From an uncultured virus (IMG/VR IMGVR_UViG_3300031134_000596) (lineage: Duplodnaviria > Heunggongvirae > Uroviricota > Caudoviricetes), in IMG/VR virus record IMGVR_UViG_3300031134_000596: a stretch of DNA of 25,196 nt; one strand, given 5' to 3'. The position numbers and the translations under genes are program-made. The notes under the pieces are model-generated. The model ran no database searches. It was given only the letters and a program-made list of their open reading frames with translations, and had not been told where the DNA came from. Shown piece after piece: positions 1,083-23,138 of this stretch. Position 1 is the stretch's first letter; each line of letters starts with the position of its first letter.

Positions 1083-1541
1083 ATGGATGACATCATTCAG
1101 TTCACTACTCTTACGCAGTCAATTTTGACTGTTGGGGCTGGAGCTTTAGTCATTCTGTTGATTGCTTCAGCCATCTGGTACTACCTACGTAAACGCAAAA
1201 CAGGGTCAGAAAAGTCCCGTTTTCGTTCAACAATAGTTGGTGTTCTTATCGGCGTAGTGGTACTTGCTGTAACTGTTACCGGCGGGGTGTACCTGAACAA
1301 CACCAGCAACAACAACACTCTTCGTGAAGCTTTAGAGAACCAAGACGTTTCGGTTACTGCAACAGAATTCGAGACCCTCAAAACTGGTCGTACCATAGAA
1401 AAAGGGGATGACACCGTAACTTTGGTACCGCTAGATAACAAATCACAGACTTACGAACTGGTCGTTCTTCCTAAAGATACCAGCGTTGAAGAGCCAGAAG
1501 ACCTTGATGATATCCTCACCCCTGAGGATTCATCAAACTAA
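1083..1541 (+). CDS. membrane protein with two TM helices and acidic C-terminal tail
   Basis: Two hydrophobic segments separated by a basic loop (RKRK...RFR); GAAAGG RBS. Confidence 0.8.
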   Translation: MDDIIQFTTLTQSILTVGAGALVILLIASAIWYYLRKRKTGSEKSRFRSTIVGVLIGVVVLAVTVTGGVYLNNTSNNNTLREALENQDVSVTATEFETLKTGRTIEKGDDTVTLVPLDNKSQTYELVVLPKDTSVEEPEDLDDILTPEDSSN

Positions 1542-1584: not shown

Positions 1585-2115
1585 ATGACGAAACTTTTCT
1601 TAGACTTTGACGGGGTGGTGAACTTCGAAGGATCACGCTCTGCGTATCGTAAAAACAGAGACACTCTTGGTTACCTGCAGCAGGATGTGGTTCATAGTCG
1701 TCTGGGAATCTTTCGTATCAACTACTCGGCGGAACTTGTCCGTAAATTGAACTCTGCCCACACTGCTCATGGTTTTGAATGGCTGTGGCTTACCACTTGG
1801 GTGAATGAAGCAAAGACACTTCTGGACCCTCAGTTGAGTTCCCATTCAGATGGTTCCGTGGATTGGGACCCTCACAGCCGTCTCGGAGTTGACTACCAAG
1901 ACACTCGTGCTTCCCGCAAATATGAAGCACTTAAGGAGTCTTATGACGGAGAACCTTTCGTGTGGGTTGATGATGAAGCAACAGTTAAGTTCGATGCTGC
2001 TGATTTTGACGTACCCACGTTGGTAGTAGCACCGAACCCAACCTACGGGGTAAGTAAAACCGAGTTGGCTACTATACTTGAATTCTTTGCTGCTCACAGT
2101 GGGAAGGATTCATAA
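1585..2115 (+). CDS. HAD-superfamily hydrolase (HAD_SAK / Swiss-army-knife RNA-repair-like type)
   Basis: Motif I 'LFLDFDGVVN', motif II 'WLTTW', Lys in 'SRKY', motif IV 'FVWVDD', C-terminal 'P..GVS'. Confidence 0.8.
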   Translation: MTKLFLDFDGVVNFEGSRSAYRKNRDTLGYLQQDVVHSRLGIFRINYSAELVRKLNSAHTAHGFEWLWLTTWVNEAKTLLDPQLSSHSDGSVDWDPHSRLGVDYQDTRASRKYEALKESYDGEPFVWVDDEATVKFDAADFDVPTLVVAPNPTYGVSKTELATILEFFAAHSGKDS

Positions 2116-2116
2116 C

Positions 2117-2941
2117 ATGGGTCTATTTAGCAAAGCCTCTACCCCAGAAGTGGATTCGAGAGCGAAAGCTGCTTGGGTCAAAAATGCATCCAAGAAAGAC
2201 TTGAGCGCTCAATGGGCTGAAATTGTCAACCGTCTGCATGAACTGCTGACAGGTGATGTTTTGTACTACCCAGAGCAGCAAAAGAATCTGCTTTCCAGCA
2301 TCTCGCTGATTCGAGATGAATGGATGCTTATCGACAAGCAGCTCATGACTGATGAAGAATCAGTGAACATGTACTGGGTAATTAACAAAGAGATGCCTAA
2401 CCTCATCATGAGCTTGGGTCAAATGAAAGCTGAACGCAGCAGCTCTTCAGCGAACCATGAAGGTAACTACCTTGAAATCTCTAAAAGAGTTAGACAGATG
2501 CAGGAAGGAGTAATGCGGCTCCGTGCAAAAACTGATGCAGAAAAGCTGTCTCGTTTCACTGACCCAGCTAATAGCAACTCTCACCAGAATCTGTCAACTC
2601 TGTCCTTTCCCGCATACCCTGATTTGCCTGTAGCTATCCAGGAGAAGCTTGCAGAGATTGGGGTCCTTTGGAGAGAACTTCAGGAAGAGACTCACACCAC
2701 TGAAAATGAGTACTTGCTGGAACGCCTTGTAACGGATTACATTCCCAGTTCTGTTGAGCTGTACCAATCCTTCACCAAAGCCCGTGAGAGCCAGCTTCAG
2801 GAGGCTCAGGACACGCTTTCCGCCCAGCTGGAGCTCATCAAACAAAGGGTAAGTTCCATCCAAGAGGGCATCCTTGGCCAGCAGCTCAAAGCTATGAATG
2901 CACAGACTGATTTCCTTACTCAGAGATTGAACGGCATCTGA
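2117..2941 (+). CDS. family A paralogue 1 (XpaC/KlaA-like helical C-terminal domain)
   Basis: Start re-called to ATG 2117 (GGAAGGA RBS); 'ENEYLLERLVTDYIPSSVELY...QLELI...QTDFLTQRL'. Confidence 0.75.
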   Translation: MGLFSKASTPEVDSRAKAAWVKNASKKDLSAQWAEIVNRLHELLTGDVLYYPEQQKNLLSSISLIRDEWMLIDKQLMTDEESVNMYWVINKEMPNLIMSLGQMKAERSSSSANHEGNYLEISKRVRQMQEGVMRLRAKTDAEKLSRFTDPANSNSHQNLSTLSFPAYPDLPVAIQEKLAEIGVLWRELQEETHTTENEYLLERLVTDYIPSSVELYQSFTKARESQLQEAQDTLSAQLELIKQRVSSIQEGILGQQLKAMNAQTDFLTQRLNGI

Positions 2942-3729
2942 TGAAATTTTTCGACTACTCCAATGCTTTTGAAGGCATGTCCAAGTCTGAGTACATCAAA
3001 CTTATCTCACATATGCGAGCCAAGTTTGACCAGTTCGACATCGAACGACGAGGACTTGCGTACTACGGCTCGAACGACAGCACAATCAAAAACAGCTACA
3101 CAGCGATTCTCAACAGAGCTCTACAGGCTAACTTTGACAAGCCTGGCATGTCCAGAAAAATCGCTCCTCTACTTCTGAAAAAACTCAACGGGCTTTACTT
3201 GGAGATTGAACACTACTCTTCCTTAGGTCGCAGAATGCCTGAAGGTAAAACCAATCGAATTCTTCGACGTTTCAAGAGGCTGTACAAGAAAATCACTCTA
3301 CTGGTTACCTCCACGGAGAACCTGGAAGTACCTAAACTTGTCAGCGGTTTCGAATTCACGAACAAAGCTTTACCTACCCAAGAGACTTCTCTTCCTGGGC
3401 TGAGTACACAACTGGACAAGGTGAGAAGTCTGGTTTTGGTAGCCAAAGCGTCCCCTCTTGAAACAGAAGAAGCCTATTTCCTCCAGCAGATTGAAGAGGA
3501 CTACTTGCCTAACATCGTGTCAACAGGTGTGAACATTCGGAACGCTTCCGAAAACATCAAAAAAGAAGCCCAAGTACAGTTCTCAAAACAGCTGAACTCC
3601 ATTGAAGCTGAACTCATGAACATTATCGACGGAGCCGCGAGCAAGATGCTTCAAGGCGCCACCATCCAAACCAATTTCCTGGAAACCAAACTTGGTAAAA
3701 GCCAGGGTAAAGGAGAACTGACAGTATGA
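2941..3729 (+). CDS. family A paralogue 2
   Basis: 'EEAYFLQQIEEDYLP...QLNSI...QTNFLETKL'; TGATG overlap with upstream gene. Confidence 0.8.
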   Translation: MKFFDYSNAFEGMSKSEYIKLISHMRAKFDQFDIERRGLAYYGSNDSTIKNSYTAILNRALQANFDKPGMSRKIAPLLLKKLNGLYLEIEHYSSLGRRMPEGKTNRILRRFKRLYKKITLLVTSTENLEVPKLVSGFEFTNKALPTQETSLPGLSTQLDKVRSLVLVAKASPLETEEAYFLQQIEEDYLPNIVSTGVNIRNASENIKKEAQVQFSKQLNSIEAELMNIIDGAASKMLQGATIQTNFLETKLGKSQGKGELTV

Positions 3730-4526
3730 CTGAATTCGGAAGTAAAAAGTGGTTTGACCAGCTTTCCTCTGAAGACTACTCTCATGTCGTCGGTCATGCC
3801 GAAAAGCAGATTCGCAAGACTTTTTCGGTCTCCAGATTGAAGAAAAATCAGCAAGACAAAATCAACGCTCATTTGCTTAAAACAATGGAAATGCTCAACC
3901 GTTTGAACCTGGAGCATCGTCCATCTAAAACACATGCTTTCAAACTGTTGTTCCAAACCTTACCCAAGTTTTTGGAAGATGCCATTCTGTATTCTGAGAT
4001 TGAAGCTACTGCTTTGCAGCACAGTGTCGGAATGTATGAACGTAGCTTAAAAATGTACGAGACTACGAAAAAGCTGTACGAGAAATTCTTGGAATGGGAG
4101 CGAGCAGCGAAACCCAAGAACAACCATCTGAGCATGTATGATGGAATCACTTTGAGCGAAAGCGGAACAGTCCTGTTGGATACCCAAACTCCTTTCCCAG
4201 TGGTGAACAAACTCATGGATAGAGTGAAAGCTCTGGCAGAGTCAGCTGTCCTGGTCAACATTTCAACTGAAGATGCCTATTTTGTTGAGCAGGTAGTGAA
4301 GCAGTATCTTCCAGATATCTCTGACTCATCCAAAAATCTGACACTGGTCACCGATTCGATGAAACAAACAGCAGAGAAAAACTATTTCCAGCAGTTGAAT
4401 CTGTTGGCGGAGAAGCTTGAATCCCTTATCAATACAGCTAACGAAAAAGCTTTGCAACAGGTGTTAGACCAGACACAATTTCTGACAGAAAAACTTGTCA
4501 ATAGACCGAAGGAGCTAACCCGATGA
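3726..4526 (+). CDS. family A paralogue 3
   Basis: 'EDAYFVEQVVKQYLP...QLNLL...QTQFLTEKL'; ATGA overlap. Confidence 0.8.
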   Translation: MTEFGSKKWFDQLSSEDYSHVVGHAEKQIRKTFSVSRLKKNQQDKINAHLLKTMEMLNRLNLEHRPSKTHAFKLLFQTLPKFLEDAILYSEIEATALQHSVGMYERSLKMYETTKKLYEKFLEWERAAKPKNNHLSMYDGITLSESGTVLLDTQTPFPVVNKLMDRVKALAESAVLVNISTEDAYFVEQVVKQYLPDISDSSKNLTLVTDSMKQTAEKNYFQQLNLLAEKLESLINTANEKALQQVLDQTQFLTEKLVNRPKELTR

Positions 4527-5290
4527 CTGAATTTGGTACTGTCCAGTGGGTCCAAGAAGCATCCCACGAAGAGTGGAAGGAAATGCTGGGTCATCTTCAG
4601 AAACGTATTAACCGACTGCTGATGACCGAAGACTCATTCTGGGATGGCAACATAGACGAAAGCATCAGGGAAGACCTCAATGATGCAATCAAGTTGTTGG
4701 AAAAACTTGACCCTGCCAGGAATTCGGCAAAGCTTCATAACCTGGTCTTTGTTCACATTGTCAACATGATGAAGCTGGTCAGCAAATATGACACTTTCAG
4801 AGCAGGGAAAATTGCATCCATAGTGGCATGGCGTAAAGCTAGGCGCTGCTACTACAAAGTAGCGAATCATGTCAAGAAGGTGGACAATAAGAAAGAGCTG
4901 CAGATATTTGCAGACTTTTTGCCAGCCCAGAAAGCTATCACTTCAACCCAGATGACTCCTTTTGAAACAGTGAACACTCGAATCAAGGAGATGAAAGTTG
5001 TCCTGGACCAGCTATCATCAGTGTCTTTGACGACAGAAGATGAGTACTTGCTCTCTGAAATCAAAAATTCTTACATCCCTCACATTGTGAAAGCTGCTTC
5101 TGAACTGAAAATGTCTTCAGCTATCAACACAACTGAAGTGGAGAAGCATTTCCTGACACAGCTTGAGCTTGTCCAAAAACAGCTGCAGGAGCTGGTGGAC
5201 CGTAAAGTTGCTGACACATTCAACGATGTTCTCACCCAAACCCAGTTTTTGTCCGAAAAATTTGAAGAACGCAAAGGAATGACAGTATGA
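4523..5290 (+). CDS. family A paralogue 4
   Basis: 'EDEYLLSEIKNSYIP...QLELV...QTQFLSEKF'; ATGA overlap. Confidence 0.8.
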   Translation: MTEFGTVQWVQEASHEEWKEMLGHLQKRINRLLMTEDSFWDGNIDESIREDLNDAIKLLEKLDPARNSAKLHNLVFVHIVNMMKLVSKYDTFRAGKIASIVAWRKARRCYYKVANHVKKVDNKKELQIFADFLPAQKAITSTQMTPFETVNTRIKEMKVVLDQLSSVSLTTEDEYLLSEIKNSYIPHIVKAASELKMSSAINTTEVEKHFLTQLELVQKQLQELVDRKVADTFNDVLTQTQFLSEKFEERKGMTV

Positions 5291-6105
5291 ACAAACCAGG
5301 GTCCTTCAAATGGTTCTTTGAACTCTCAGATAGTGACTATGCTGCTCTGATTGAACACCTGAAGACAACAAACTATAACCTGTTCAAGAATAAGCAGCTT
5401 TTAGCTTACATTATCCACGATGACCAAGTTCGGAGCCATGTTTCACAGTTTTTGAAAGCAGCAAGCAAAGCTAACCGGGTAAAAAAATCTGCAGCTCGTA
5501 GACTGTATAAGCTGATGTTCAAAAAACTGGATGTGCTGTTTTCCGAGCTGGCAAAATACGGTCATGTTCAAGCAGATTTTACTGCGTCTGGCATGATTGT
5601 GGATTACAGCGAAAAGTTGAAAAAGGACATGAACACACTGTTCGCAAAATATGATGCAGTGGAAACTTTTGAGATGCTAAAAGGTTTGGAACTGAGTTCA
5701 GGACTGGTACTTCTTCCTACCCGAACCCAATTCCCTCAGGTTAATAACAAACTGGAAGAGCTGAACCAGTTAGCCCTGCAGGTAGGTAAAACACCCCTGA
5801 CTGTAGAAGAACAGTATTACGTTGATGAAGCCATCAAAAACTACATCCCAGGAATTCTGAAAGCCTCCGATGCTGTCCAACAGCTTCCAACAGCTGAGCT
5901 GAATGAGCTGGAGAAGAATTTCATGTCTCAGATCAACTCAGTAAAAGAGCAACTGCAGCAAATTCTTGCAACAGCTAACGCCCGCACCATGCAGGAAGTG
6001 CGTTCCCAAACAGCTTTCTTGGAAGCCAAGAACGCTCAAAGCCAGCTTGCTCTACCAGCGGCGGATGGCACCACTCTACTGAAGAAAGAGAATAGCCATG
6101 TCTGA
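5287..6105 (+). CDS. family A paralogue 5
   Basis: 'EEQYYVDEAIKNYIP...QINSV...QTAFLEAK'; ATGA overlap. Confidence 0.8.
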   Translation: MNKPGSFKWFFELSDSDYAALIEHLKTTNYNLFKNKQLLAYIIHDDQVRSHVSQFLKAASKANRVKKSAARRLYKLMFKKLDVLFSELAKYGHVQADFTASGMIVDYSEKLKKDMNTLFAKYDAVETFEMLKGLELSSGLVLLPTRTQFPQVNNKLEELNQLALQVGKTPLTVEEQYYVDEAIKNYIPGILKASDAVQQLPTAELNELEKNFMSQINSVKEQLQQILATANARTMQEVRSQTAFLEAKNAQSQLALPAADGTTLLKKENSHV

Positions 6106-6460
6106 AAAAAGTGCAATCATGGCTGAACTTGCCGCATTGGGCACTCCTTGGAGCCGGCGTCTGACAGATTTGAAAGCTTCAGAAAGAGTGTCTTTAGCTG
6201 GTCTTGAAACGCTTGTCAAAATTTTGAGAACCCCAGAATTAGACAGCTGGGATACTCTCGGAATTTTCCCTGGAGAATACAGTGGTCTTCGAATTGAATT
6301 CCACGACAACAGGAAGCATCTGACTATCGAAATTGATAAGCAGGACGAAATCTATGTTGTCTACTTCGACTTTGAAAACAATGTTGAATTCCACGAAGAA
6401 ACTAAGTCTCATGAGAAAGCAATCAAGCTGGTCATTTCTCACCTGAAACGAAAACAGTAA
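6098..6460 (+). CDS. hypothetical protein (120 aa), unrelated to family A
   Basis: 8-nt overlap with upstream gene; alternating beta-like pattern in the C-terminal half; lacks the YLP domain. Confidence 0.75.
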   Translation: MSEKSAIMAELAALGTPWSRRLTDLKASERVSLAGLETLVKILRTPELDSWDTLGIFPGEYSGLRIEFHDNRKHLTIEIDKQDEIYVVYFDFENNVEFHEETKSHEKAIKLVISHLKRKQ

Positions 6461-6474
6461 AGATATTAGGCTCC

Positions 6475-6503
6475 TTGTAACAACCAGCTATTTATGATAG
6501 TAT
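6475..6503 (+). promoter_or_regulatory. sigma70-type promoter for family A paralogues 6-7
   Basis: TTGTAA(6475-6480)-N17-TAGTAT(6498-6503) with TG extension; followed by a GAAA-tetraloop hairpin (TATAAGGT-GAAA-GCCTTATA) in the 5' UTR. Confidence 0.65.
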
Positions 6504-6555
6504 CAAGGTGGTTATATAAGGTGAAAGCCTTATAAAGAAAGCAGGAGAGAAAGAG

Positions 6556-7452
6556 ATGCCGTCTAAAAGGGATTATGAAGAGGCAGCGAGAAAGTCCAAC
6601 AGGGACACTCTCAACGAGATTAGAAGAACTATCGAGATACGAACTGTAGCTAAGAACTACAAAGAAGCTCTCAACGCAGCTCAGATGGCTAACTATAAGA
6701 ACCTCACAAACAAACAGCTGTACACGATTTTTGACGGCTACACTGGTAAGATCGAACTGACTCTCAAGAAGCCTGGTTTAGAGCGAATCTATGCGGCTCA
6801 TAACACACACAGCTCTTACCTGAACACTATTTCTTACTTGCGGAACGTTGACCGTTCAGTTTGGGCCGCCCGTCTGAAGCTGCGAAAAATTCTGGGCACC
6901 TCTTTACCCAAGCTCTTTGCTCTGTTTGATAAAGCCTCAGAGACCTCTGACGATTTTGAAAACCTGCCTGATGTGGAAGCATTTGCTGTCAAAGTTGAAG
7001 TCATCTCCAAAGCCCTGTCGGAGCAGTACCCTAAACCAGTCAAAGCCCAGCCTCAGATGTCTGCCACGCCATTGAGAGGCGCAGGACAGAAAGCTCTACC
7101 TGCTGTTGAAGCTAACGTTGCCCCTGAAGTCACTGCTGTGTTCAGAAAGATTGCAGCCCTCGTGGCTGAACTGCAGAAGATGAAACTCAGCCCTGAAGAT
7201 GAGTACTTCATGGAAAGCATCACCAATGAGTATCTTCCGTCTATTAGCAATGCAGCTAAATCGTTGACAGTTGCAGATGAATGGACTCGGGTCGAAGCTA
7301 ACCGAAACTTTGTTACTCAGCTGTCTTTGATTGAAAAAAGACTGACGGAGCTGCTTGACGGAGCTCATGAAGGAACTCTTCGTGAGGTGAAAGTCCAGAC
7401 AAGCTTTCTGAGACAAAAATTTGGAGACAAAGACAAAGGACTACAGCTATGA
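6556..7452 (+). CDS. family A paralogue 6
   Basis: 'EDEYFMESITNEYLP...QLSLI...QTSFLRQKF'; AGGAG RBS. Confidence 0.8.
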   Translation: MPSKRDYEEAARKSNRDTLNEIRRTIEIRTVAKNYKEALNAAQMANYKNLTNKQLYTIFDGYTGKIELTLKKPGLERIYAAHNTHSSYLNTISYLRNVDRSVWAARLKLRKILGTSLPKLFALFDKASETSDDFENLPDVEAFAVKVEVISKALSEQYPKPVKAQPQMSATPLRGAGQKALPAVEANVAPEVTAVFRKIAALVAELQKMKLSPEDEYFMESITNEYLPSISNAAKSLTVADEWTRVEANRNFVTQLSLIEKRLTELLDGAHEGTLREVKVQTSFLRQKFGDKDKGLQL

Positions 7453-8444
7453 GTGAACTTGGCACACTAGAATGGGTGAAGAACTCTTTCCAATCTGAAT
7501 TCGACGCTTTCATCAAGACCTTAAAAGCAGATGTCCACAAGTCTTTCAAGCAAAAAGAGGTGCTGTACTGGAATTTTCAGAACTACTCCGCTGCTGATGA
7601 ACTTAAAGATGCTTTGGATAGGACCTGCACAGTGGACCGAACCAATGACACCGTAGCTCACAAAGTTTACAAGCTTCTTTTCAAGAAAATTGTCCCGTTG
7701 CTGGATTTTGTTCGAGACTACAGAGAAACCAGTCTCAAAGATTTAAGAAGCGGCTACCATCGTAAACGAATCAGTGGCATGTATCGTTATGCTAAAACTA
7801 TAACCAGATACAATAATGCTCTGCATGGCATAGAGCCTGGAATTCTGACCACATATGCAGCTTCTCTTTCCGGAACAGCTGTTACCACTCCGAACGATGA
7901 CACCGTGTATGAGCAAACACAGTACACCTTAGTCAACTCGCTCATTTACGATATTAGAACCCTGAGAACTGTATGTCTTGAATCAAGAAGCACTCCTGAG
8001 GAGGAGTACTTCTTAGAGCAAATTGTCACGTCTTACATCCCAGCTGTGGTCAAAGGTGCTGCTGCGGTTGCTAACGCTTCACCTGAAGTGAACCAGCAGG
8101 CAGAGAAGAACTTCATTCGCCAGTTGAAATTAGTTCGCACGAAGTTGCAGGAGCTGGTTGAGAAAAACAGTCTTGCTGCTTTGAAGGAAGTGGAAGCTCA
8201 AACAGAGTTTTTGGCGACCAAGTTTGAAGAGAAACCAGCCAACCAAGCTTTGACTTTGGGAAAGGGTGCATCTGCTCCGAAGCCGCTTCCTCAGAGGTCA
8301 ACTAAAGTGGTTGACTCGCTGGGTTTTGACGGTCGCCCTATTCGGTCTGCCAAAAAGTACCCTGCAGGAGTTACATCTAAAAGCACAGTCCTTTTAGGAC
8401 ATCAGAACTCGCATTATTTTCATGAGAAAAGTTGGTCCGATTGA
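7449..8444 (+). CDS. family A paralogue 7 with C-terminal low-complexity extension
   Basis: 'EEEYFLEQIVTSYIP...QLKLV...QTEFLATKF'; ATGA overlap. Confidence 0.8.
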   Translation: MSELGTLEWVKNSFQSEFDAFIKTLKADVHKSFKQKEVLYWNFQNYSAADELKDALDRTCTVDRTNDTVAHKVYKLLFKKIVPLLDFVRDYRETSLKDLRSGYHRKRISGMYRYAKTITRYNNALHGIEPGILTTYAASLSGTAVTTPNDDTVYEQTQYTLVNSLIYDIRTLRTVCLESRSTPEEEYFLEQIVTSYIPAVVKGAAAVANASPEVNQQAEKNFIRQLKLVRTKLQELVEKNSLAALKEVEAQTEFLATKFEEKPANQALTLGKGASAPKPLPQRSTKVVDSLGFDGRPIRSAKKYPAGVTSKSTVLLGHQNSHYFHEKSWSD

Positions 8445-8522
8445 ACTACGAGAATAAGCGACTGACCGTACTGTTCTGTTAGTATATTGAAGAAGCAAAT
8501 GCTTCATGTTCAAGGAGGAATT

Positions 8523-8771
8523 ATGTCTCACACGCTCAACCCTGTGGATGTTCGAGAAATAGCAACTAATGCTGTTCGGCTGATCCAGTTCAATGATGAC
8601 AACTGGGAACAGGTTTACGAGTTCGTGAACTTCGAATGGGATGAAGACGACAAGAATGTGGGAGTTCCTGACCGTTTAGTGTTGGATGCTGCTGGCCATG
8701 AAGAGCCTCTTGTTGTCGAAAAAGGTCAGTGGATCGTGAAGTACAGCGACTTGATTGTGGATGTCATCTAA
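8523..8771 (+). CDS. small acidic hypothetical protein (82 aa), phage-like
   Basis: Start re-called to ATG 8523 after AAGGAGG; 'A...IQF...N' and 'V..GQWIVK' pattern typical of small phage proteins. Confidence 0.7.
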   Translation: MSHTLNPVDVREIATNAVRLIQFNDDNWEQVYEFVNFEWDEDDKNVGVPDRLVLDAAGHEEPLVVEKGQWIVKYSDLIVDVI

Positions 8772-8775
8772 AACC

Positions 8776-9123
8776 ATGGCTGTTTACGTAGATGACATGC
8801 TCATGGAAGCAACTGTAAACGGTGTCACATCCAGATGGTCTCATCTGTTTGCCGACGATACTGAAGAACTCATGGTCTTCGCTGGGAAGCTTAGGCTTTC
8901 ACGTGCCTGGGTTCAATACCCTGGAACATGGAAAGAACATTTTGACCTTACCAAAATGGTTAGGCTAAAAGCATTAGGTCTTGGCGCCATCAGTGTTCCC
9001 ATCATGTCCCAAGAGTGGGTTGATTTGCAGAACAAAAAAAGAGAACAAGCAGGTCTGCCTCTATTAGTGAAGCGGGTTGACCCTGCAGACTCTAAGCCAA
9101 CTCCTGAGTTCACTTTGTTCTAA
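8776..9123 (+). CDS. DUF4031 family protein
   Basis: 'MAVYVDD...WSHLFADDTEEL..FA..L.L...W.Q......HFDLT...R..A...GA' matches the DUF4031 pattern; start re-called to ATG 8776. Confidence 0.8.
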   Translation: MAVYVDDMLMEATVNGVTSRWSHLFADDTEELMVFAGKLRLSRAWVQYPGTWKEHFDLTKMVRLKALGLGAISVPIMSQEWVDLQNKKREQAGLPLLVKRVDPADSKPTPEFTLF

Positions 9124-9136
9124 CTCTGATGTAACT

Positions 9137-9173
9137 AAGTAGGGCCCGACAAAATCTGTCGGGCCCTACTTTT
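9137..9173. terminator. bidirectional hairpin terminator
   Basis: 15-bp perfect stem AAGTAGGGCCCGACA/TGTCGGGCCCTACTT between convergent genes, followed by T run. Confidence 0.85.
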
Positions 9174-9835: not shown

Positions 9836-10363
9836 TTAGCTGATTTTGTATTGAATGGCGAAGCCGAAATGTATGGAAAACGTACCAGCAACTCCTCTTG
9901 AAGTCAAAATATCGCCGTGAAACTTTTTTCGTGCCACCTTGGTCACTTTTCCTACTGCACCGTCAGGAAACTTCAACCTGTCACCAATTCTCACTCCAGA
10001 TTCTGCCGCACTGATAGAAAGAAGGTGCTTAGCTCGTTTGTTTCGTTCAGCAATGTCTGGCCGTGCAGGATTATCTGCTGTTCGTTGCCCGGTGTAGCCC
10101 AAACTGGCTGCTTTCTTCTTCCATTCCGGTCCGTGCCCTGCTGAAGGCGGTAGAAGAGCATGAGCTATCTCATGAAGCATTGTCTGATGCACATGCTCCC
10201 GAGTTCCAGCTGCGACCATATGCCGGCTGATGCTAATTGTCTGAGTGTGGAAGGTAGTCAGACCTAAACGATTTTTCGCTCTATCGAACTTGAATGACCA
10301 GTTCTTCAACCCGTGACGCACCATGAGGTGTCGAGCAAGCCTTTCCGCTTTTTCTAATTCCAT
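9836..10363 (-). CDS. SprT-like zinc metalloprotease domain protein
   Basis: 'W.FKFDRAK.RLG...ISIS...TMLHEIAHAL....GHGPEWK' (HExxH plus GHG.W); start re-called to MELEKAE after GAAGGA; TGgTACGAT -10 upstream. Confidence 0.85.
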   Translation of the reverse strand: MELEKAERLARHLMVRHGLKNWSFKFDRAKNRLGLTTFHTQTISISRHMVAAGTREHVHQTMLHEIAHALLPPSAGHGPEWKKKAASLGYTGQRTADNPARPDIAERNKRAKHLLSISAAESGVRIGDRLKFPDGAVGKVTKVARKKFHGDILTSRGVAGTFSIHFGFAIQYKIS

Positions 10364-10484
10364 TTTTCCTTCTAAGATCAGTCTACATCGTACCATGAAC
10401 CTCTAATTTAGAAGGTTACAGGCAGGTGTTATTCGTACATCGTTCGAACATAAAGTAACAGTCGAAAAAAGTTCAGAAAAAGGC

Positions 10485-10720: not shown

Positions 10721-10758
10721 AGGAAGAGGGGAGCAGGAATTCCTGCTCCCCTCTTCCT
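10721..10758. terminator. 38-bp perfect palindrome, probable terminator
   Basis: AGGAAGAGGGGAGCAGGAA|TTCCTGCTCCCCTCTTCCT, 11 nt after the peptide stop codon. Confidence 0.65.
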
Positions 10759-11134: not shown

Positions 11135-12052
11135 CTAATCAGTGAGTTTCATTCCATGTTCTTGTCTCTGGCTGATGTAATCAAGATGAGCTCGCATGTT
11201 TTTGGTGTTGCCTGCAGAGAATTGGTCTTGCAAAATTTCTGCTTCTACTTTAAGCGAGTTCAAACCCTTCATCAGTAAACTTGAGCTGTGCTCTTTTACC
11301 GACTCAGCATAGAGCTGTAACAGCTGATCCAAGTCTCCCAGCACTCTTTCCACAGCATGTCTTTCTTCTACGGAAAGGTTCTGGTTTTTGAGTTTGTACA
11401 TTGAGTAACGAATTGCAATGCATGCTTCGTTAGCAGCTTTGTCCATCTCAGGGTCTGAGGGAACTATCAGCTTGTCTTCCTGAAACACTTGTTCATGCTT
11501 TTCTTCAAACTGCACAGACAAAAGGGTTCCTTCTTGTGAGTTGACAGTAAGGAAGCACAAATCTCCTGTAATTGATTTGACTTCCAAAGTGAATTTGTCA
11601 TCATCTCGATACAGATGGGTAAAACCTTCCCACAACCGGTCAGATGTCACAGTAGGCAGCAAGAAGTGTTTCAGCTCAGGTTGAGCGTTCCACCATTTTC
11701 TGAACCTGTTACGAAACAACTGCTTGCGAGAGGGTCCCATAAAAGCGGACCATGCCCCTACTGACATGGCAGCTGTACTTGCTAAAGTTGCAATAGCTCC
11801 GACAACTATGAGTTGAGGAACTGCAGCCATCAAACCAGCTCCTGATGACATGAAAATAGTGCCACCTAAAGTCAACGCCATTGCATTGTCGCTACTGAAT
11901 CCAGAAGAGAAACGGTAAGGCTTTTTCAGATCGACAGTACGGGTTATTGTTTCAATCACCACACCAGGAGCTGACTCCGATTGTTTATCTGAAGGAACAG
12001 AGTTCAAGTACAGTGCTGTCGCATTTTCATAAGCATTATTTTTCGCGGTCAT
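11135..12052 (-). CDS. membrane-anchored distant family A member
   Basis: Two TM segments; C-terminal 'LSVEERHAVERVLGDLDQLLQLY...L..L..E...L....HLDYISQR' aligns by eye with the family A domain. Confidence 0.7.
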   Translation of the reverse strand: MTAKNNAYENATALYLNSVPSDKQSESAPGVVIETITRTVDLKKPYRFSSGFSSDNAMALTLGGTIFMSSGAGLMAAVPQLIVVGAIATLASTAAMSVGAWSAFMGPSRKQLFRNRFRKWWNAQPELKHFLLPTVTSDRLWEGFTHLYRDDDKFTLEVKSITGDLCFLTVNSQEGTLLSVQFEEKHEQVFQEDKLIVPSDPEMDKAANEACIAIRYSMYKLKNQNLSVEERHAVERVLGDLDQLLQLYAESVKEHSSSLLMKGLNSLKVEAEILQDQFSAGNTKNMRAHLDYISQRQEHGMKLTD

Positions 12053-12411
12053 CAGCTCACTTCAGTGTCTTTCCTAAAGCACTCAACTACATGCTCAGTT
12101 TGGTCAACATAATCCGCAGGCTTGCGTTTGAAAGAGTCATGAGGTGAAGGCGTGTCAAACCACAAAGCAACTGACCAATCTTCAACACCACGGTCAGATG
12201 CAATTTTTAGAATCTGCTTCAGTGCAGGGTAAGGTTTCCTATTCTCATCCAGCTGGAAAGCTGGGTACAGCATAATTCCTGAAGCTTCGACACCTAAACC
12301 GACACGGTTAGTTTCTGCGATTTCCATTTCATCGGAATCGAATACCATAGGCCAGGTTTTTAGGAACGCTGATTTCAGTTCAACAAGTCTGCGGGCAGGA
12401 TCGTAAGTCAT
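12052..12411 (-). CDS. Xre/MbcA/ParS antitoxin-like (Rv2175c-like) C-terminal domain protein
   Basis: 'LYPAFQLD....P.P.L..IL.......W.VALWF.TP........PAD' pattern; leaderless start re-called to ATG 12411 (TACAAT 6 nt upstream). Confidence 0.55.
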   Translation of the reverse strand: MTYDPARRLVELKSAFLKTWPMVFDSDEMEIAETNRVGLGVEASGIMLYPAFQLDENRKPYPALKQILKIASDRGVEDWSVALWFDTPSPHDSFKRKPADYVDQTEHVVECFRKDTEVS

Positions 12412-12466
12412 GGTTGAATTGTATCTCATTTCAGGCAAACCCGCAGGTAAAAAGCACTTTGAGCTG

Positions 12467-12495: not shown

Positions 12496-12526
12496 GAGCG
12501 TCTAACTGACCATGAAAGGCACAACA

Positions 12527-13264
12527 ATGATTGACCACAGTGACGCAAGAACGCAGGCTCTGGTTATAAAGCACGCAGACCTCCTCGTAGAAGCTGCCTG
12601 CACATCCTACGAGAACCGCAAAATGTTCAACAGTCGAAAGACCCGTGATGTATGGTGCCCCAAGCACAGCACCTTCCATCTTGTGTACGCAAGTCAGTAC
12701 GCTTCTGTGTGGGACAGTCTGAAGAGCTTTCTTGACATTGAGACACCTCTTACGCTCGACCAGGAGAAAGAGCTGAGTGCCATTTCACGACAGCTCGTGA
12801 ACATCCTTGATGGACCTAACGGACCCATGATGAAGAGGACAGGAAAGAAGCCTGTTGTCCAGCAGAAGGCTACTACGAAGGTGAAGAAGCAGGTTATTTC
12901 TGGTCCCTCGCCTCTGAGTGCAGCTCAGAGCAACAAGAACATCCTGTCCTACAAGAACAACATTTCACTTACAGAGGCTGAAGCGGAAGAGTTCTCCAGT
13001 TGTATTCGTAAGAGAATGTTCATCAACGCAGCAGCTGCGGAGACTTTCCGTGACAGAGCTGCGGATTCTACTGAATTCCACGTTTACTCCTGCAACCACT
13101 GCGAATGGTGGCACATCGGTCATATCGTGAATGAGAATGCAGCTCGCCCTGAGGGTTACTACCGCATGAAGCTGCTCCGACTTTCACCCCAGGATAAGAA
13201 CCTTCTGATTGAGTTCAAGAGGAAAGTTCAGGTCCGACGCGAATACCTAACACAGACTGCTTAA
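12527..13264 (+). CDS. basic protein with two Cys/His (zinc-finger-like) modules
   Basis: 'C....RKMF...VWCPKHSTFHL' and 'CIRKRMF...A...VYSCNHCEWWHIGH'; start re-called to ATG 12527 after GAAAGG. Confidence 0.7.
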   Translation: MIDHSDARTQALVIKHADLLVEAACTSYENRKMFNSRKTRDVWCPKHSTFHLVYASQYASVWDSLKSFLDIETPLTLDQEKELSAISRQLVNILDGPNGPMMKRTGKKPVVQQKATTKVKKQVISGPSPLSAAQSNKNILSYKNNISLTEAEAEEFSSCIRKRMFINAAAAETFRDRAADSTEFHVYSCNHCEWWHIGHIVNENAARPEGYYRMKLLRLSPQDKNLLIEFKRKVQVRREYLTQTA

Positions 13265-14239: not shown

Positions 14240-14258
14240 CGTGCTGATAGTAGAACCT

Positions 14259-15011
14259 ATGCTCAGAATAGCCACCCAGAACCTTGGAATGCCTCAGAAG
14301 TCTGACGGTTGGAAACACCGTTGGAGCGTTAGGCAGAAAGCTCACGCCAATCTCCTGAACAGCAACCGATTTGCTTTGGTCGCTTTGCAGGAGCTTCCTG
14401 CTGAGAATTTTGACGACTTCAAGCACACCATGAACCACAAAAGCAAAATCTGGGAATTCATCGGTGATTCATACATGAATGCTGTAGCCTTCAATGAAGA
14501 CTTCATTCATGTCGCTGATAAACCAGAGACGTTTGTCTACTCAGACAACGCTGAAGGTTGCTCTTCAGCTTTTACGGCTGTCCCTTTTTATGACCTCGGT
14601 GCTGAGGTGTACTTTACGTTCATCGTCACACACCTCAATGGAGGTGACCGTGCTATTCGTACAAAGCAGACAGCAGAGCTGGTAGCGTACGCTGAGACCA
14701 GAAGGACTTCTGAGAATCCTGTCATCGTTGCGGGTGATTTCAACTCACTTTCAGCAGCACAGGCAGTGTTCAACTCCGCTGACTTCACTGATTTGTGGGA
14801 AGCCACCCCAAACAAAGAGAACACTTTCATGAACTCTTACCAGGGGTGGACAGAAAAGTCGAAAGCTCGCCACCAGGAGGAGAGAGTTGACGCTATTTTC
14901 GGTTCAGGTAGCCTGCATGTGATTGAAGCAGGAGTCCTTCCTTCTGTATGGCATAATGTTCAAGCGTCTGACCATAACGCTGTGTGGTGTGAAGTGACGT
15001 TGAACGACTAA
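14259..15011 (+). CDS. endonuclease/exonuclease/phosphatase (EEP) family protein
   Basis: 'LRIATQN', 'VALQE', 'THL', 'VIVAGDFN', 'RVDAIF', 'ASDHNAV' catalytic motifs; start re-called to ATG 14259. Confidence 0.9.
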   Translation: MLRIATQNLGMPQKSDGWKHRWSVRQKAHANLLNSNRFALVALQELPAENFDDFKHTMNHKSKIWEFIGDSYMNAVAFNEDFIHVADKPETFVYSDNAEGCSSAFTAVPFYDLGAEVYFTFIVTHLNGGDRAIRTKQTAELVAYAETRRTSENPVIVAGDFNSLSAAQAVFNSADFTDLWEATPNKENTFMNSYQGWTEKSKARHQEERVDAIFGSGSLHVIEAGVLPSVWHNVQASDHNAVWCEVTLND

Positions 15012-15871
15012 GGCTTCAGGTACCGAACAAAACCTGTATGGTCCTCTTCTGCTGACACAACCTGCATTGGTGCCATGTCTTTAACCAGAGTCTTCAAATG
15101 TGGGTCTGAACGCCAAGACCATTTGTCTTCTGTGTAAGAACAGGAAGTTTCAACAGCTTTCAATGCTTCCATTGGGTCACAGCCGTAGAAACCACTGGAC
15201 CAGGCACGGTTGGCTTCCACCACTAACCATTCACTACGGTCCATGTCTAAAGCAACATCAAGTACATATGCAGGAGGGGTGTCTCCAACATTAGAAGTTT
15301 CGACATGCTGAGCAAACTCTTGGGCGTTAAAAAGTTCTGAAGAGTCGATACCTGAATGGAAACCAACCCCTTTTACAAGGTACGGACTGCCGGCGATGAC
15401 TTCTCCATTACGGATAAAGAACCGGTGTTCGTAGTCTAAGTTAAGGAAAGAATCAGTCCATTGCAGATGAATGTCCTCGGATAAACCGTTACTCAAAAAG
15501 ATATCTTTCAGCTCGGAGTAGCTATACCTTCCTGGGGCCAGTGACTTCACTTTCGCTTCTGCTGGTTTGACCCAGATTTGGTCAGAAAATTCAGGCATCT
15601 CTTTGAAAGTAGTTGCGGTGATTTTTCTACCAGTGAATTCGGGGTTCAAATTAGCTAACCATGCACTGCCGGGTGAGCACAACTGTGTAGCAAATCCAAG
15701 CTCTTGGAGCTGTGCTGCGTACAGTCCGCCCATCCAGTAGATGGTGTCGTAGTTTGCCAAATCAGGGATGACATCGCCGTAGCTGAAGAAGAGTTCTCTG
15801 TCGGTTATCCCTTTGCTGATCGATTGCACAAGGTTTACGCTGTGGGCTACAGTTAAGACGGCTTTCTTCAT
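15008..15871 (-). CDS. ATP-grasp domain protein (DUF4343 / R2K clade)
   Basis: 'WVKPAEAK.K', 'EHRFFI..G.VI..SPY', 'AYVLDVA......W.VVEAN.AWSSGFY'; leaderless start re-called to ATG 15871 (TATACT 6 nt upstream). Confidence 0.8.
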   Translation of the reverse strand: MKKAVLTVAHSVNLVQSISKGITDRELFFSYGDVIPDLANYDTIYWMGGLYAAQLQELGFATQLCSPGSAWLANLNPEFTGRKITATTFKEMPEFSDQIWVKPAEAKVKSLAPGRYSYSELKDIFLSNGLSEDIHLQWTDSFLNLDYEHRFFIRNGEVIAGSPYLVKGVGFHSGIDSSELFNAQEFAQHVETSNVGDTPPAYVLDVALDMDRSEWLVVEANRAWSSGFYGCDPMEALKAVETSCSYTEDKWSWRSDPHLKTLVKDMAPMQVVSAEEDHTGFVRYLKP

Positions 15872-15902
15872 GGTTCGAGTATACATGATTTTATCAGCAA
15901 TT

Positions 15903-19708: not shown

Positions 19709-20629
19709 GTGATCCCTGTTATCGCTGAGGGTAAAGGGGCTAAAGCTTTGGCCCGCTTGACTCCTGTCGAAAATTATCGAACGGCTCAGAGAGTAGAAAA
19801 ACTTCAAATTGCAAGCGGAGCAACAACCTTGTTTGGTTCTGCCATAGCTGGTATAGCCCTTCCAGCTATTTTTGCCCCAGAAGCCTTCTCTATCTATCTT
19901 TCTGTCATTGGAGGTCTCCTCAGTCCATTCTTAGGGATGCGTGTTGCACGAAGCATCTATAGGCGATTCTTGTTCACAGATACAACTGACCTTGCGATAG
20001 GCATTCGAAAAGTTCTGTACGATTGGGCTTATCAACAGTACAACGTCAGAATTATTTCACAGTACTGGATTGATACAAAAGCTTTGTACTCTGGACAAAA
20101 ATCGGATCGCCATTTGGGAAACATGGAAGATGAAAAAGGTAACGAATACCAGCTGTGGATCAATTCTGAACAAAAACTGAGTCTTCAAAAACACGTAGGG
20201 GGACAAAGTTATAGCATCCAAAAACCTATAGCTCCTTTACCGAAGCAGAAAGCTTTGCCTGCAGCTGAAGCTAATACTGAAGAAGTTTTCTTCATCTCAA
20301 AAACACAATCTGTTGACATTTTGATTGAGTACTTAGAAGAACTTGAACTGGACGCTGAGCAGGCTCATTTGGTTGAGAGAGCGAAAGACGATTTAGCTTA
20401 TGCTCTCAACATGTATGAGAACCTACTGAAAGTAGGGGAAAGTTCTGAAGCTAATCAGCATTTGAGGTTTGCGGTTCGCACTTTGAGAAACGAACTCCAG
20501 CAGCTGAAAGAGGAATACATCCAAAGTGTCAGAAGTCAAGCCCATCTTCAGCAAGAGTATCTAAAAAGTCGTACTGCCGGCTCACAAGATTCAGGTCAGC
20601 TGCAGTTGCATCCGACGAAAAATAGTTAG
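19709..20629 (+). CDS. membrane-anchored distant family A member
   Basis: Two TM segments, 'QKALPAAEAN' linker, C-terminal 'LDAEQAHLVERAKDDLAYALNMY...L..EL..L....QQEYLKSR'; GTG start with AAAGG. Confidence 0.7.
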   Translation: MIPVIAEGKGAKALARLTPVENYRTAQRVEKLQIASGATTLFGSAIAGIALPAIFAPEAFSIYLSVIGGLLSPFLGMRVARSIYRRFLFTDTTDLAIGIRKVLYDWAYQQYNVRIISQYWIDTKALYSGQKSDRHLGNMEDEKGNEYQLWINSEQKLSLQKHVGGQSYSIQKPIAPLPKQKALPAAEANTEEVFFISKTQSVDILIEYLEELELDAEQAHLVERAKDDLAYALNMYENLLKVGESSEANQHLRFAVRTLRNELQQLKEEYIQSVRSQAHLQQEYLKSRTAGSQDSGQLQLHPTKNS

Positions 20630-21440: not shown

Positions 21441-21752
21441 TTACAACCCTTCAGCTATTTTGCGTAGAACTGTTAGATGGTTCTTCCAGGCTGCACGACC
21501 TTCTTTGGTCAAAGAGACCATCGTTCGAGGGTATTTACCTACAAAGCTTTTCTGAACAGCAAGATAGCCGGCAGTTTCCAAAGCGGATATCTGTTTACTC
21601 AAAGCTGAATCAGTTACTTCGAGGTTCTCTTTGACTTCTTGGAAACTCAGCTTTTCAGCTTTGTCCAAAGACGCCATGATTGAGAATCGTATGACGTTAT
21701 GGAGTAGGTCGGTCAGTTGGTGACGTGGATGTGACTGTTCTACCGTACTCAT
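21441..21752 (-). CDS. winged-helix transcriptional regulator (ArsR/MarR-like, HTH_34 type)
   Basis: 'LH..IRFSIMA.L.....LSF..VKE.L.VTDSALSKQISALE.AGYL.V.K.FVGK.PRT.V.LT..GR.A...H...L'; start re-called to ATG 21752, ATGA overlap with upstream gene. Confidence 0.9.
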   Translation of the reverse strand: MSTVEQSHPRHQLTDLLHNVIRFSIMASLDKAEKLSFQEVKENLEVTDSALSKQISALETAGYLAVQKSFVGKYPRTMVSLTKEGRAAWKNHLTVLRKIAEGL

Positions 21753-22180
21753 CGTCGGGCCTCGATTGTGGCGGCAAAGAAAGTTACAAGAAGAATTAAT
21801 CCAGAGGTAGCTGCAGCCCAGATAACAGAGCCGTGCATGAATCCTACTACAGCAATGGCTCCTGCATATGCGACAGCCCAGGATACAATGTATGCTGCCC
21901 AACGCTTACTCCAGGCGAAGGCTCGTTTTTCTCTGGTAGTGGCAAGGAAGAACATCAGCAGGGCGAACAACATAGTCAGTGTGGCTGTGTAGGCCAATCC
22001 GAAGGAAGCGCCTTCGGTTAGAGTCATGGCTAAGCTTCCGAAAGCTGTGATTATTCCTAAAGCGAGAATGAAGCTGATGTAGGGCCATTTTACCGCATCG
22101 TGGGACTGCTTGCTGAGAGTTGTTGCTCTGTTCAGCAGGTCTTGTGCTTCGGTGGGACTGAAAGGTGCTTGCGTATTCAT
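21749..22180 (-). CDS. four-TM membrane protein co-transcribed with the winged-helix regulator
   Basis: Start re-called to ATG 22180 (MNTQAPF) after AGGAG; four hydrophobic segments; this gene pair is common in Actinobacteria. Confidence 0.8.
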   Translation of the reverse strand: MNTQAPFSPTEAQDLLNRATTLSKQSHDAVKWPYISFILALGIITAFGSLAMTLTEGASFGLAYTATLTMLFALLMFFLATTREKRAFAWSKRWAAYIVSWAVAYAGAIAVVGFMHGSVIWAAATSGLILLVTFFAATIEARR

Positions 22181-22331: not shown

Positions 22332-23138
22332 ATGAAGATTCTTGTCGGTTCAACCGCATTGAAGCATCACATGCCTGACATCCGCGAGCCTAAGGACCTG
22401 GATTATCTCCTGGTCAACCCCACTCCTGAAGAGCTTGAGCTTCTGAACGAGGGACAGGGTGTTGATGTCTTTACCCATCCTGACCTTTCCAAGTGGGACT
22501 GGTCAGGTGAGGTCCCCTCGCTGGATGAGCTGTACACGCTCAAGGTCTCACACTCTTTCTGGGAGCTGAAGAACGGCACTTGGGACAAGCACATGTTTGA
22601 TGTGGTGAAGATGAGTGAAGCTGGAGCGAAGTTCATTCCTGAGCTCCACGCTATCCTTTACCCCATCTGGGTTGAGAAGCATGGAGTAAAGAAGGCTAAC
22701 CTGGAGCTTGCTCCTGATGAGTTCTTCAACCCTCATGTCCAGCGTAAGTACGACCATGACTCTGTTCATGCCTCCGTTGCTTACCGTGAGTCTGGTATCC
22801 CGCTGTTCAACGAGATTCTTCGTGACGGTCACCAGGTTGCTGTGGACCGTGCCAAGTTTGAGGCAATGCCCCTGGAGACTAAGTTCCAGTTGGTTCGTGA
22901 GGAAGTTTACGCGACAGCACTTGAGCGTCGTCTGATTCCGTCCAACTACACGTTGAACCCTCGTGTGGGTTATGCTTACGCTCTGCGTCGCACCATTACT
23001 TCATACACAAAGGGCTGGTTCCCTCTGTTCATCGTCCTGAACTTCGGTGAACTTCGTAAGCCTGATGTGAACTTTGTGCAGATTCATCACGAAAACGCTG
23101 ACCGTCTCATTCCGTTTGATGATAAGGTAGAAGCATGA
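22332..23138 (+). CDS. phage-type protein with N-terminal nucleotidyltransferase-like GS...DxD motif
   Basis: 'ILVGSTAL.......REPKDLDY', 'LYTLKVSH.FW', 'W.KH..D', 'R.YDHDSVH', 'EE..A.A.ER'; TGcTAAGCT -10 upstream. Confidence 0.6.
   Translation: MKILVGSTALKHHMPDIREPKDLDYLLVNPTPEELELLNEGQGVDVFTHPDLSKWDWSGEVPSLDELYTLKVSHSFWELKNGTWDKHMFDVVKMSEAGAKFIPELHAILYPIWVEKHGVKKANLELAPDEFFNPHVQRKYDHDSVHASVAYRESGIPLFNEILRDGHQVAVDRAKFEAMPLETKFQLVREEVYATALERRLIPSNYTLNPRVGYAYALRRTITSYTKGWFPLFIVLNFGELRKPDVNFVQIHHENADRLIPFDDKVEA

Follow-up and report, generated by a model that had tools for sequence, protein, structure and literature searches.

The 25,196-nt stretch of DNA analyzed here (the window; IMG/VR record IMGVR_UViG_3300031134_000596, filed as an uncultured virus) carries a tandem array of seven diverged paralogous genes whose products share a C-terminal helical domain. 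The seven open reading frames (ORFs) lie on the + strand and together span positions 2117-8444 (Table 1). Successive genes overlap by 1-8 nt, the sole exception being a 95-nt gap that follows an unrelated 120-aa gene. The start of gene 1 agrees with that of a 98%-identical 274-aa database protein. Three related loci were used for comparison: the metagenome locus L004, on a 788,683-bp contig (99% protein identity for gene 1 and 93.8% DNA identity over the window), and the loci L005 and L006, on contigs of 883,042 and 878,612 bp, which encode relatives about 51% identical to gene 1. The GC content is about 46% in all three loci.

Table 1. Array genes, further proteins carrying the domain, and flanking features of the window.
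Feature	Position	Strand	Remarks
Paralogue 1	2117-2941	+	274 aa; conserved putative 'founder'; acidic or neutral throughout
Paralogue 2	2941-3729	+	262 aa; in MAFFT alignment; N-domain an apparent recombination hot spot
Paralogue 3	3726-4526	+	266 aa; copy used for the AlphaFold2 model
Paralogue 4	4523-5290	+	255 aa; in MAFFT alignment; C-domain profile E 2.7e-49
Paralogue 5	5287-6105	+	272 aa; in MAFFT alignment; clusters with paralogues 2 and 3 in the tree (89/87)
Unrelated gene interrupting the array	6098-6460	+	120 aa; not matched by the family profiles
Paralogue 6	6556-7452	+	298 aa; in MAFFT alignment
Paralogue 7	7449-8444	+	331 aa; C-terminal extension of about 65 aa; in MAFFT alignment
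Distant family member	11135-12052	-	305 aa; profile E 3.3e-4; hydrophobic membrane segment, then C-terminal domain
Distant family member	19709-20629	+	306 aa; profile E 3e-4; two transmembrane helices, then C-terminal domain
Membrane protein gene	1083-1541	+	152 aa; upstream of the array; syntenic in L004, L005 and L006
HAD_SAK_2 (PF18143) phosphatase-like gene	1585-2115	+	E 2.3e-10; syntenic in L004, L005 and L006
94-aa protein and DUF4031 (PF13223) protein genes	8487-9123	+	DUF4031 E 4.3e-14; syntenic in L005
Terminator-like hairpin	9137-9171	+	15-bp stem with 9 G-C pairs; consensus scan only
SprT-like gene	9836-10396	-	downstream of the array

The relationship of the seven proteins was analyzed by multiple alignment and by searches with profile hidden Markov models (HMMs). 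In a MAFFT alignment the overall identity to gene 1 was 17-19% across the seven proteins, and ten columns were invariant (M1, E196, Y199, Y208, P210, Q237, Q263, T264, F266 and L267). The C-terminal region of about 115 aa, taken alone, was 24-31% identical to the C-domain of gene 2, well beyond what chance would give. A first-pass annotation of this DNA had described a shared C-terminal domain with the motif E(D/E).Y........Y(L/I)P ... QL ... QT.FL, and this motif was reproduced by the ten invariant columns. Among 1.84 billion proteins the seven-C-domain profile matched the representatives of 317 clusters formed at 50% identity when the threshold was E<=1e-3, and of 131 such clusters at E<=1e-10, and it recognized the independent arrays of L005 and L006 with E-values of 1e-27 to 1e-31. 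Of 155 family proteins, 128 carry the signature [ED][DENQ].[YFW]x8[YFW].P.

An HMM of the N-domain, derived from 128 aligned family sequences with the seven proteins themselves among them, matched all seven with E-values of 1e-11 to 1e-30, so the homology extends through the entire protein, whose front half evolves faster. Judged by these sequence comparisons, the seven genes are true paralogues, homologous over their full length and not only in the C-domain. The view of variable N-termini placed on a conserved assembly domain understated this, since the protein is a single homologous two-domain unit. The N-halves had also been called diverged and basic. The N-parts of genes 2-7 are indeed basic (pI 9.1-10.0) but that of gene 1 is not, and the divergence has not erased their homology. 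The C-domains of genes 2-6 are acidic (pI 4.8-5.2), and the family-wide median pI is 8.7 for the N-part and 4.8 for the C-domain. Genes 3 and 4 have the weak common start M(T/S)EFG..W in exact form and genes 5 and 7 in approximate form; genes 1, 2 and 6 lack it.

The family N-domain and C-domain profiles also match each other (hhalign probability 87%, E 3.9e-6, 52 columns, helical composition bias being uncontrolled in this comparison), and there are hints that the two-domain protein may have arisen by internal duplication of an XpaC-like domain. In some long family members of 560-842 aa (P0103, P0127, P0128, P0140, P0141, P0149 and P0151) the domain is located in the middle of the protein, and in P0103, P0127 and P0151 it is followed by long, mostly coiled-coil-like stretches. 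P0127 is encoded on an 820,703-bp contig that also encodes an LCP protein 60% identical to that of L004.

The seven genes encode functional two-domain, all-helical cytoplasmic paralogues. None of the proteins reached any Pfam cut-off, and PF10112 (Halogen_Hydrol), the family of XpaC, was absent even at E<=1. This model has a gathering score of 29.8 bits and performed as expected on Bacilli, where it matched 5 of 5 and 24 of 81 genomes. No PHROG or NCBIfam model matched the seven proteins, and among 147 family representatives searched against Pfam at E<=1e-4 none had a family over its cut-off and none matched PF10112. Transmembrane (TM) segments were absent from all seven and were flagged in only 4 of 155 family proteins. 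An AlphaFold2 model of gene 3, computed with the 128-sequence alignment, had a mean predicted local distance difference test (pLDDT) score of 91.4 and a predicted template modelling (pTM) score of 0.58. In this model a short N-terminal helix (residues 7-11) precedes the four helices of the N-domain (15-32, 40-59, 65-89 and 96-128), and a disordered linker (129-157) leads to a three-helix C-domain (158-176, 181-203 and 210-258). A sequence search of the PDB gave a designed coiled coil as its best match (E 0.012), and the ESM Atlas gave no usable match.

The conservation of the array was determined by comparison with the related loci. L004 has the same seven array genes together with the 120-aa gene, and in both L005 and L006 the corresponding position, between HAD_SAK_2 and DUF4031/SprT, is occupied by six consecutive family genes. 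The flanking orthologues of the window lineage and the L005 lineage are 35-65% identical and their gene order is kept. Gene 1 and the first array gene of L005 form the only clear orthologue pair (50.5% identity, within the range of the flanking genes), whereas genes 2-7 are 18-29% identical to L005 genes 2-6 with no one-to-one pairing. In a maximum-likelihood tree gene 1 and its L005 orthologue formed a clade (support 99/99), weakly placed (62/87) as sister to the telA-adjacent type A proteins (see below). One lineage-specific cluster (89/87) comprised genes 2, 3 and 5 and another (94/94) L005 genes 2, 3 and 4, and the remainder of the tree was an unresolved star of long branches.

All seven array genes are real and under purifying selection. 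The ratio of nonsynonymous to synonymous substitution rates (dN/dS) between the window and L004 was 0.03-0.18 for all seven, similar to that of neighbouring genes, with values of 0.03 for gene 1, 0.04 for gene 3, 0.18 for gene 4, 0.03 for gene 5, 0.10 for gene 6 and 0.14 for gene 7. The 120-aa gene gave 0.09. In the N-half of gene 2 synonymous divergence (dS) from L004 was saturated and dN was 0.20. The corresponding DNA (3001-3500) is only 67-75% identical to L004, compared with 90-99% in its flanks. A similar pattern was seen between L005 and L006, which are otherwise 97-99% identical: a 375-nt block over the N-domain of gene 3 could not be aligned, and the protein identity of this gene is 65% against 99% for the other five. 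It looks as if, in each of these two strain pairs, a single N-domain was replaced by a divergent allele through recombination, rather than changed by local positive selection. Two further divergence hot spots between the window and L004 lie at 11751-12250 and 12501-12750, where identity falls to 77-84% while most other bins show 90-99%. Within them are the N-terminal part of the distant member at 11135-12052, a 128-aa gene at 12052-12438 (- strand) and the start of a 250-aa gene at 12512-13264.

The 120-aa gene within the array had no Pfam or NCBIfam family at cut-off. In PADLOC it matched the candidate defence protein PDC-M32A weakly (E 5.7e-4), and a match to PG_binding_5 stayed below threshold. 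In L005 the six array genes are contiguous and leave no gap for such a gene.

The occurrence of the C-domain outside the array was determined by profile searches of sampled genomes. One or two matches were found in 36 of 401 genomes of the family to which a Leifsonia genome belongs and in 49 of 401 further genomes of the order, and none of these genomes had an array, in accordance with the earlier statement that proteins of this kind are normally single-copy. Two types of protein were distinguished. Type A proteins are soluble and about 170-200 aa long; they begin with an M.FGRF..S.FG peptide, which a linker joins to the helical domain, and close with a tail such as LTLGGR. Type B proteins (about 210-290 aa) have two TM helices followed by the domain. 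No Pfam family was assigned to either type, and the family HMM matched these proteins at 1e-13 to 1e-17. Linkage to telA was examined at 28 of 40 places, which were picked by E-value and ORF size and not at random, and the family gene lay beside telA in 27 of these 28 loci. For type A, telA was directly upstream in 24 of 24 loci, 0-93 nt away wherever the ORF call permitted measurement (23 loci), in a setting of TerC/DUF475-TerD-TerD-TelA-X-TerD clusters. For type B, telA was two genes upstream in three of four loci, behind a gene for a VWA/SBP protein (TelA-VWA-X). The C-domain of the array belongs to a family that in ordinary Actinomycetales is single-copy and encoded right after telA (TerC-TerD-TerD-TelA-X) or two genes after it (TelA-VWA-X).

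Profile-profile comparison with hhalign supported this assignment. The window family matched type A with a probability of 97.7% (E 1.4e-12, 106 columns) and type B with 97.5-97.9% (E 6.2e-12 to 5.7e-13, 95-99 columns), and types A and B matched each other with 98.7% (E 1.5e-16, 132 columns). The helix, helix and long-helix pattern that closes the model of gene 3 also closes that of a type A protein (pLDDT 81.7). The window proteins share with both types the C-domain with its signature ...E(Q/D)...(D/S)Y(L/I)P..., a Q/H-G-x-F-L-x-K-F ending, an N-terminal aromatic/FG peptide and an L-x-L tail; a three-helix C-domain with the signature E..(Y/H)..(E/D)(Q)....(D/S)Y(L/I)P and an F-L-x-x-K ending was found in the window proteins. 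The terminal peptides are likewise common to type A (M.FGRF..., ...LTLGGR) and the window proteins (MTEFGS..W, ...ELTV/ELTR/GMTV/GLQL). Types A and B differ in being single-copy beside telA, in lacking the basic four-helix N-domain and in belonging to genomes of 64-71% GC. The window, in contrast, encodes seven soluble copies in tandem and two further copies with TM helices, and no telA is in view.

The first-pass annotation had compared the C-domain to XpaC and KlaA, partners of toxic-anion-resistance proteins. KlaA, of the IncP kilA (klaABC/telA) operon, is a partner of TelA (KlaB); a tblastn search of plasmids with TelA gave no IncP record. XpaC proteins (PF10112) are about 205-245 aa long and have two TM helices and a cytoplasmic helical domain. 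They are single-copy, with one match in each of the 5 and 24 matching Bacilli genomes, and 20 of 28 genuine PF10112 loci in Bacilli had a TelA-like ORF within 1.5 kb, so that XpaC is telA-linked as types A and B are. An alignment of 28 PF10112 proteins of Bacilli matched type B with a probability of 91.2% (E 1e-6, 126 columns) when five type B sequences were used, and with 93.2% (E 2.9e-7, 201 columns including the TM pair) when seven were used. Type A did not match XpaC (0.1%, E 0.66, 31 columns). Controls with reversed XpaC gave 3.7% for type B and 2.1% for the window family, and type B against TelA gave 0.6%. The actinobacterial telA-adjacent family, compared at the level of sequence profiles, is thus probably a remote relative of the XpaC cytoplasmic domain. 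Since the transitive route (97.5-97.9%, then 93.2%) scores high against reversed controls of 2.1-3.7%, the idea of an XpaC-type TelA partner points in the right direction; it appears to hold as remote, transitive homology and not as membership, because PF10112 never matches. The seven window proteins further differ from XpaC in having no TM helix and an extra N-domain, and in not being adjacent to telA in the visible 33 kb.

TelA (PF05816) resembles the window proteins in being all-helical and, in the relatives, in belonging to the same functional neighbourhood, but it is not homologous to them. A derivation of the N-domain from TelA, or any other kinship with TelA, was rejected: the family against a TelA alignment gave an hhalign probability of 1.1%, and there was no PF05816 match for the seven proteins or the 147 representatives. 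The 277-aa neighbour of a Bacillus telA gene was rejected as a family member as well (0.1%); the record concerned has no PF10112 gene. Complex prediction for TelA and the neighbouring type A protein of one Microbacteriaceae genome gave scores of 0.28 and 0.16, below the mark of 0.32 and without weight for or against a complex.

With the two distant members, the window encodes nine proteins that carry this domain. A hydropathy scan showed one hydrophobic segment, from residue 65, in the 11135-12052 copy and two in its L004 counterpart. An alignment of this copy, its counterparts in L004, L005 and L006 and the 19709-20629 protein matched the family C-domain with an hhalign probability of 94.3% (E 1e-7, 92 columns). 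The match of the two TM members to XpaC (23%) was no better than the reversed control (25%).

The surroundings of the array looked like the chromosome of a low-GC actinobacterium near the Microbacteriaceae and not like a phage, so the earlier wording of host factors and a replicon, which implied a phage or plasmid, was not supported. The region 6-10 kb upstream of the array encodes an M23 peptidase, an LCP wall-polymer ligase and an NTP transferase. The nearest named relatives of the LCP protein are from Microbacteriaceae (Planctomonas, Gryllotalpicola and Leifsonia; 45-53% identity), and the LCP proteins of five small Microbacteriaceae genomes are only 41-48% identical. The host is probably genome-reduced. 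Scans of GTDB for peptide patterns of the gene-1 orthologues, of the LCP protein and of the motif E[DNE]EYFLE[QE] found no relative, and the host lineage is unrepresented among the GTDB genomes sampled.

The hairpin downstream of DUF4031 probably ends the + strand transcription unit, and a scan for promoter-like sequences was at chance level (8 found, 9.6 expected). A perfect 38-nt palindrome was detected at 10721-10758, between the SprT-like gene and the next gene, as a reverse-strand self-match in the comparison with L004. Similar palindromes occur in L005 (4625-4672 and 1498-1536). An Exo_endo_phos nuclease/phosphatase gene (14241-15011, + strand) converges on an R2K-clade ATP-grasp gene (15008-15886, - strand) with a 4-nt overlap; together with the SprT-like and HAD_SAK_2 genes, these make the window rich in domains of the nucleic-acid repair or modification type. 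A gene at 22332-23138 (+ strand) encodes a DUF7275 protein (E 6.7e-54) with a trace of DUF7277 and adjoins an HTH_34 regulator gene (21441-21902, - strand). A surface-protein gene of at least 580 codons (23454-25196, - strand), which continues past the window end, contains DUF285/PARCEL repeats (Pfam E 1e-60; NCBIfam Mbov_0838-like E 4e-37). These repeats are typical of Mycoplasma and Listeria surface lipoproteins, and the gene is therefore unusual in an actinobacterial context.

A possible function of the array was considered in the light of what has been reported for XpaC and TelA. In Enterococcus faecium strains with an intact telA, and only in these, deletion of xpaC redistributes anionic lipid domains and lowers the daptomycin minimal inhibitory concentration 8-fold (PMC6811118). 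The xpaC gene belongs to, and is induced in, envelope-stress regulons of the LiaR/CesSR type (PMC10269926, PMC7864038), and according to one proposal TelA forms sub-membrane structures impeding the entry of phages or xenobiotics (PMC7824862, citing Anantharaman et al. 2012). On this basis we propose, tentatively, that the array is a diversified panel of adaptors or regulators acting on a TelA-type machine in envelope-stress or exclusion responses. In such a panel the partner gene would have been amplified in this lineage, giving one conserved founder (gene 1) and five or six fast-diverging copies in which the membrane anchor or short N-peptide was exchanged for a basic four-helix domain. The conserved parts, namely the acidic C-domain, the short aromatic/FG peptide that starts the protein and the hydrophobic-x-hydrophobic tail that follows the last helix, may together be the module by which every copy docks onto a TelA-type (or equivalent) sub-membrane stress machine. 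Through its own variable basic N-domain each copy could respond to a distinct input or act on a distinct target, the simplest candidates being the anionic membrane or cues of envelope stress, and new N-domain alleles would be exchanged between strains through recombination. The combination of one conserved founder with fast-diverging, recombining copies suggests a panel with different specificities.

Several results weigh against this proposal. The direct match of the window family to XpaC is weak (20.7%, E 1.1e-3, 74 columns, in the same motif register), so that the link is transitive, and PF10112 was also unmatched in 9 further proteins (E<=10) and in 11 Microbacteriaceae homologues (E<=1). 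No PADLOC model matches the seven proteins. Foldseek with the gene 3 model found no match in the PDB at E<=1e-3, as for a generic helical bundle, and an exhaustive VIA search returned only generic or designed helical bundles, the best Z of 10.4 being within the range that the tool itself calls uninformative for helical proteins. A six-frame HMM search (E<=10) found no TelA-like frame in L004-L006 or in the 33 kb formed by the window and the 8 kb upstream of it, bearing out the earlier remark that no telA is nearby. TelA was likewise found in none of five small Microbacteriaceae genomes (0.9-1.9 Mb), and the family is also absent there. A reduced genome may well lack TelA, as these five do; together with the absence of telA from view, this suggests that the array may act independently of TelA or take its place. 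Docking, membrane binding and a role in stress or exclusion are what we infer from the published work and the anatomy of the proteins. A bolder form of the panel reading, which we consider doubtful, would make the array a self-standing, diversity-maintaining set of sensors, possibly without TelA, in which the founder is joined by five or six fast-turnover XpaC-like adaptors whose basic N-domains are swapped between strains as allelic cassettes, to provide a genome-reduced actinobacterium with a repertoire that recognizes different envelope insults or phages.

Other explanations of the array were weighed against the same data. The first-pass annotation had suggested a hetero-oligomeric or polymer-forming scaffold, in which the C-domains would associate and the paralogues would build a mixed sub-membrane lattice, perhaps replacing TelA in a reduced genome. 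The 1-8 nt start/stop overlaps, which suggest coupled translation, are consistent with such a lattice, as are the conserved C-domains with their variable N-domains; head-to-tail pairing of acidic C-domains with basic N-domains is conceivable, the two domains may be diverged duplicates of each other, and some family members have long coiled-coil extensions (450-842 aa). However, the relatives are single-copy beside telA, so that a hetero-oligomer would not be the ancestral mode, and copy numbers of seven and six without one-to-one orthologues fit a fixed-stoichiometry complex poorly, which makes the scaffold unlikely in our view. A new, TelA-independent function, in which the basic N-domains would after duplication have come to bind, for example, nucleic acid or some other acidic polymer, leaving the C-domain as a structural remnant, would account for the high pI of most N-parts, for the missing telA and for the nucleic-acid-related neighbours (HAD_SAK_2, SprT-like, Exo_endo_phos and R2K ATP-grasp). 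We consider it improbable: conservation across 128-155 family proteins is highest in the C-domain, the N-terminal peptide and the tail, which argues for a retained ancestral interaction, and no DNA- or RNA-binding fold was recognized by Pfam, Foldseek or VIA.

That the array is cargo of a phage, plasmid or other mobile element, acting on host factors, appears very unlikely. Only 8 of the 29 window ORFs have a known family, DUF4031 matches a PHROG family, and R2K ATP-grasp and HAD_SAK_2 domains are frequent in large phages. On the other hand, no match was found in 50,697 phage records by megablast of the window or tblastn of gene 7, scans of IMG/VR gave chance-level short matches or none, and PHROG and Pfam scans of the window revealed no capsid, terminase, integrase or relaxase. 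The contigs of L004-L006 are 789-883 kb long, the wall-related and NTP transferase genes with their Microbacteriaceae-like LCP protein lie upstream, and the gene order is kept over deep divergence. The extreme divergence between paralogues (17-29% identity) might also be read as decay into functionless duplicates, a reading to which we give hardly any credence; it is contradicted by the seven intact frames in the window and L004 and by their low dN/dS, and the array persists in a lineage in which the flanking proteins are only 35-65% identical. The panel of adaptors on a TelA-type machine is the reading we prefer.

In the literature on XpaC, TelA and KlaA, with coverage of few subscription journals, no description was found of a multiplied XpaC-like or TelA-partner gene, nor of the telA-adjacent actinobacterial family. 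What is new here is a Pfam-less branch of the XpaC/TelA-partner domain, a soluble two-domain architecture and its tandem amplification. TelA and XpaC are widespread and recur in screens for tellurite, nisin, daptomycin and bacteriocin resistance, and the mechanism of neither is established. The locus points to a large Pfam-less family that joins the telA-adjacent genes of Actinomycetales to the XpaC of Bacilli, and it defines the core of this family as a three-helix domain with an N-terminal peptide and a C-terminal tail, a candidate module for contact with TelA. It also offers a natural experiment, a six- to seven-fold multiplication of the partner that has left one copy conserved and the others fast-diverging with recombining N-domains, in a genome that appears small and in which loss of redundancy might be expected. 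If the panel reading is true, the variable N-domains would mark what the system senses. The self-standing sensor panel, if true, would be the first indication of the purpose of the XpaC/TelA-partner domain and an example of immune-like diversification built on it.

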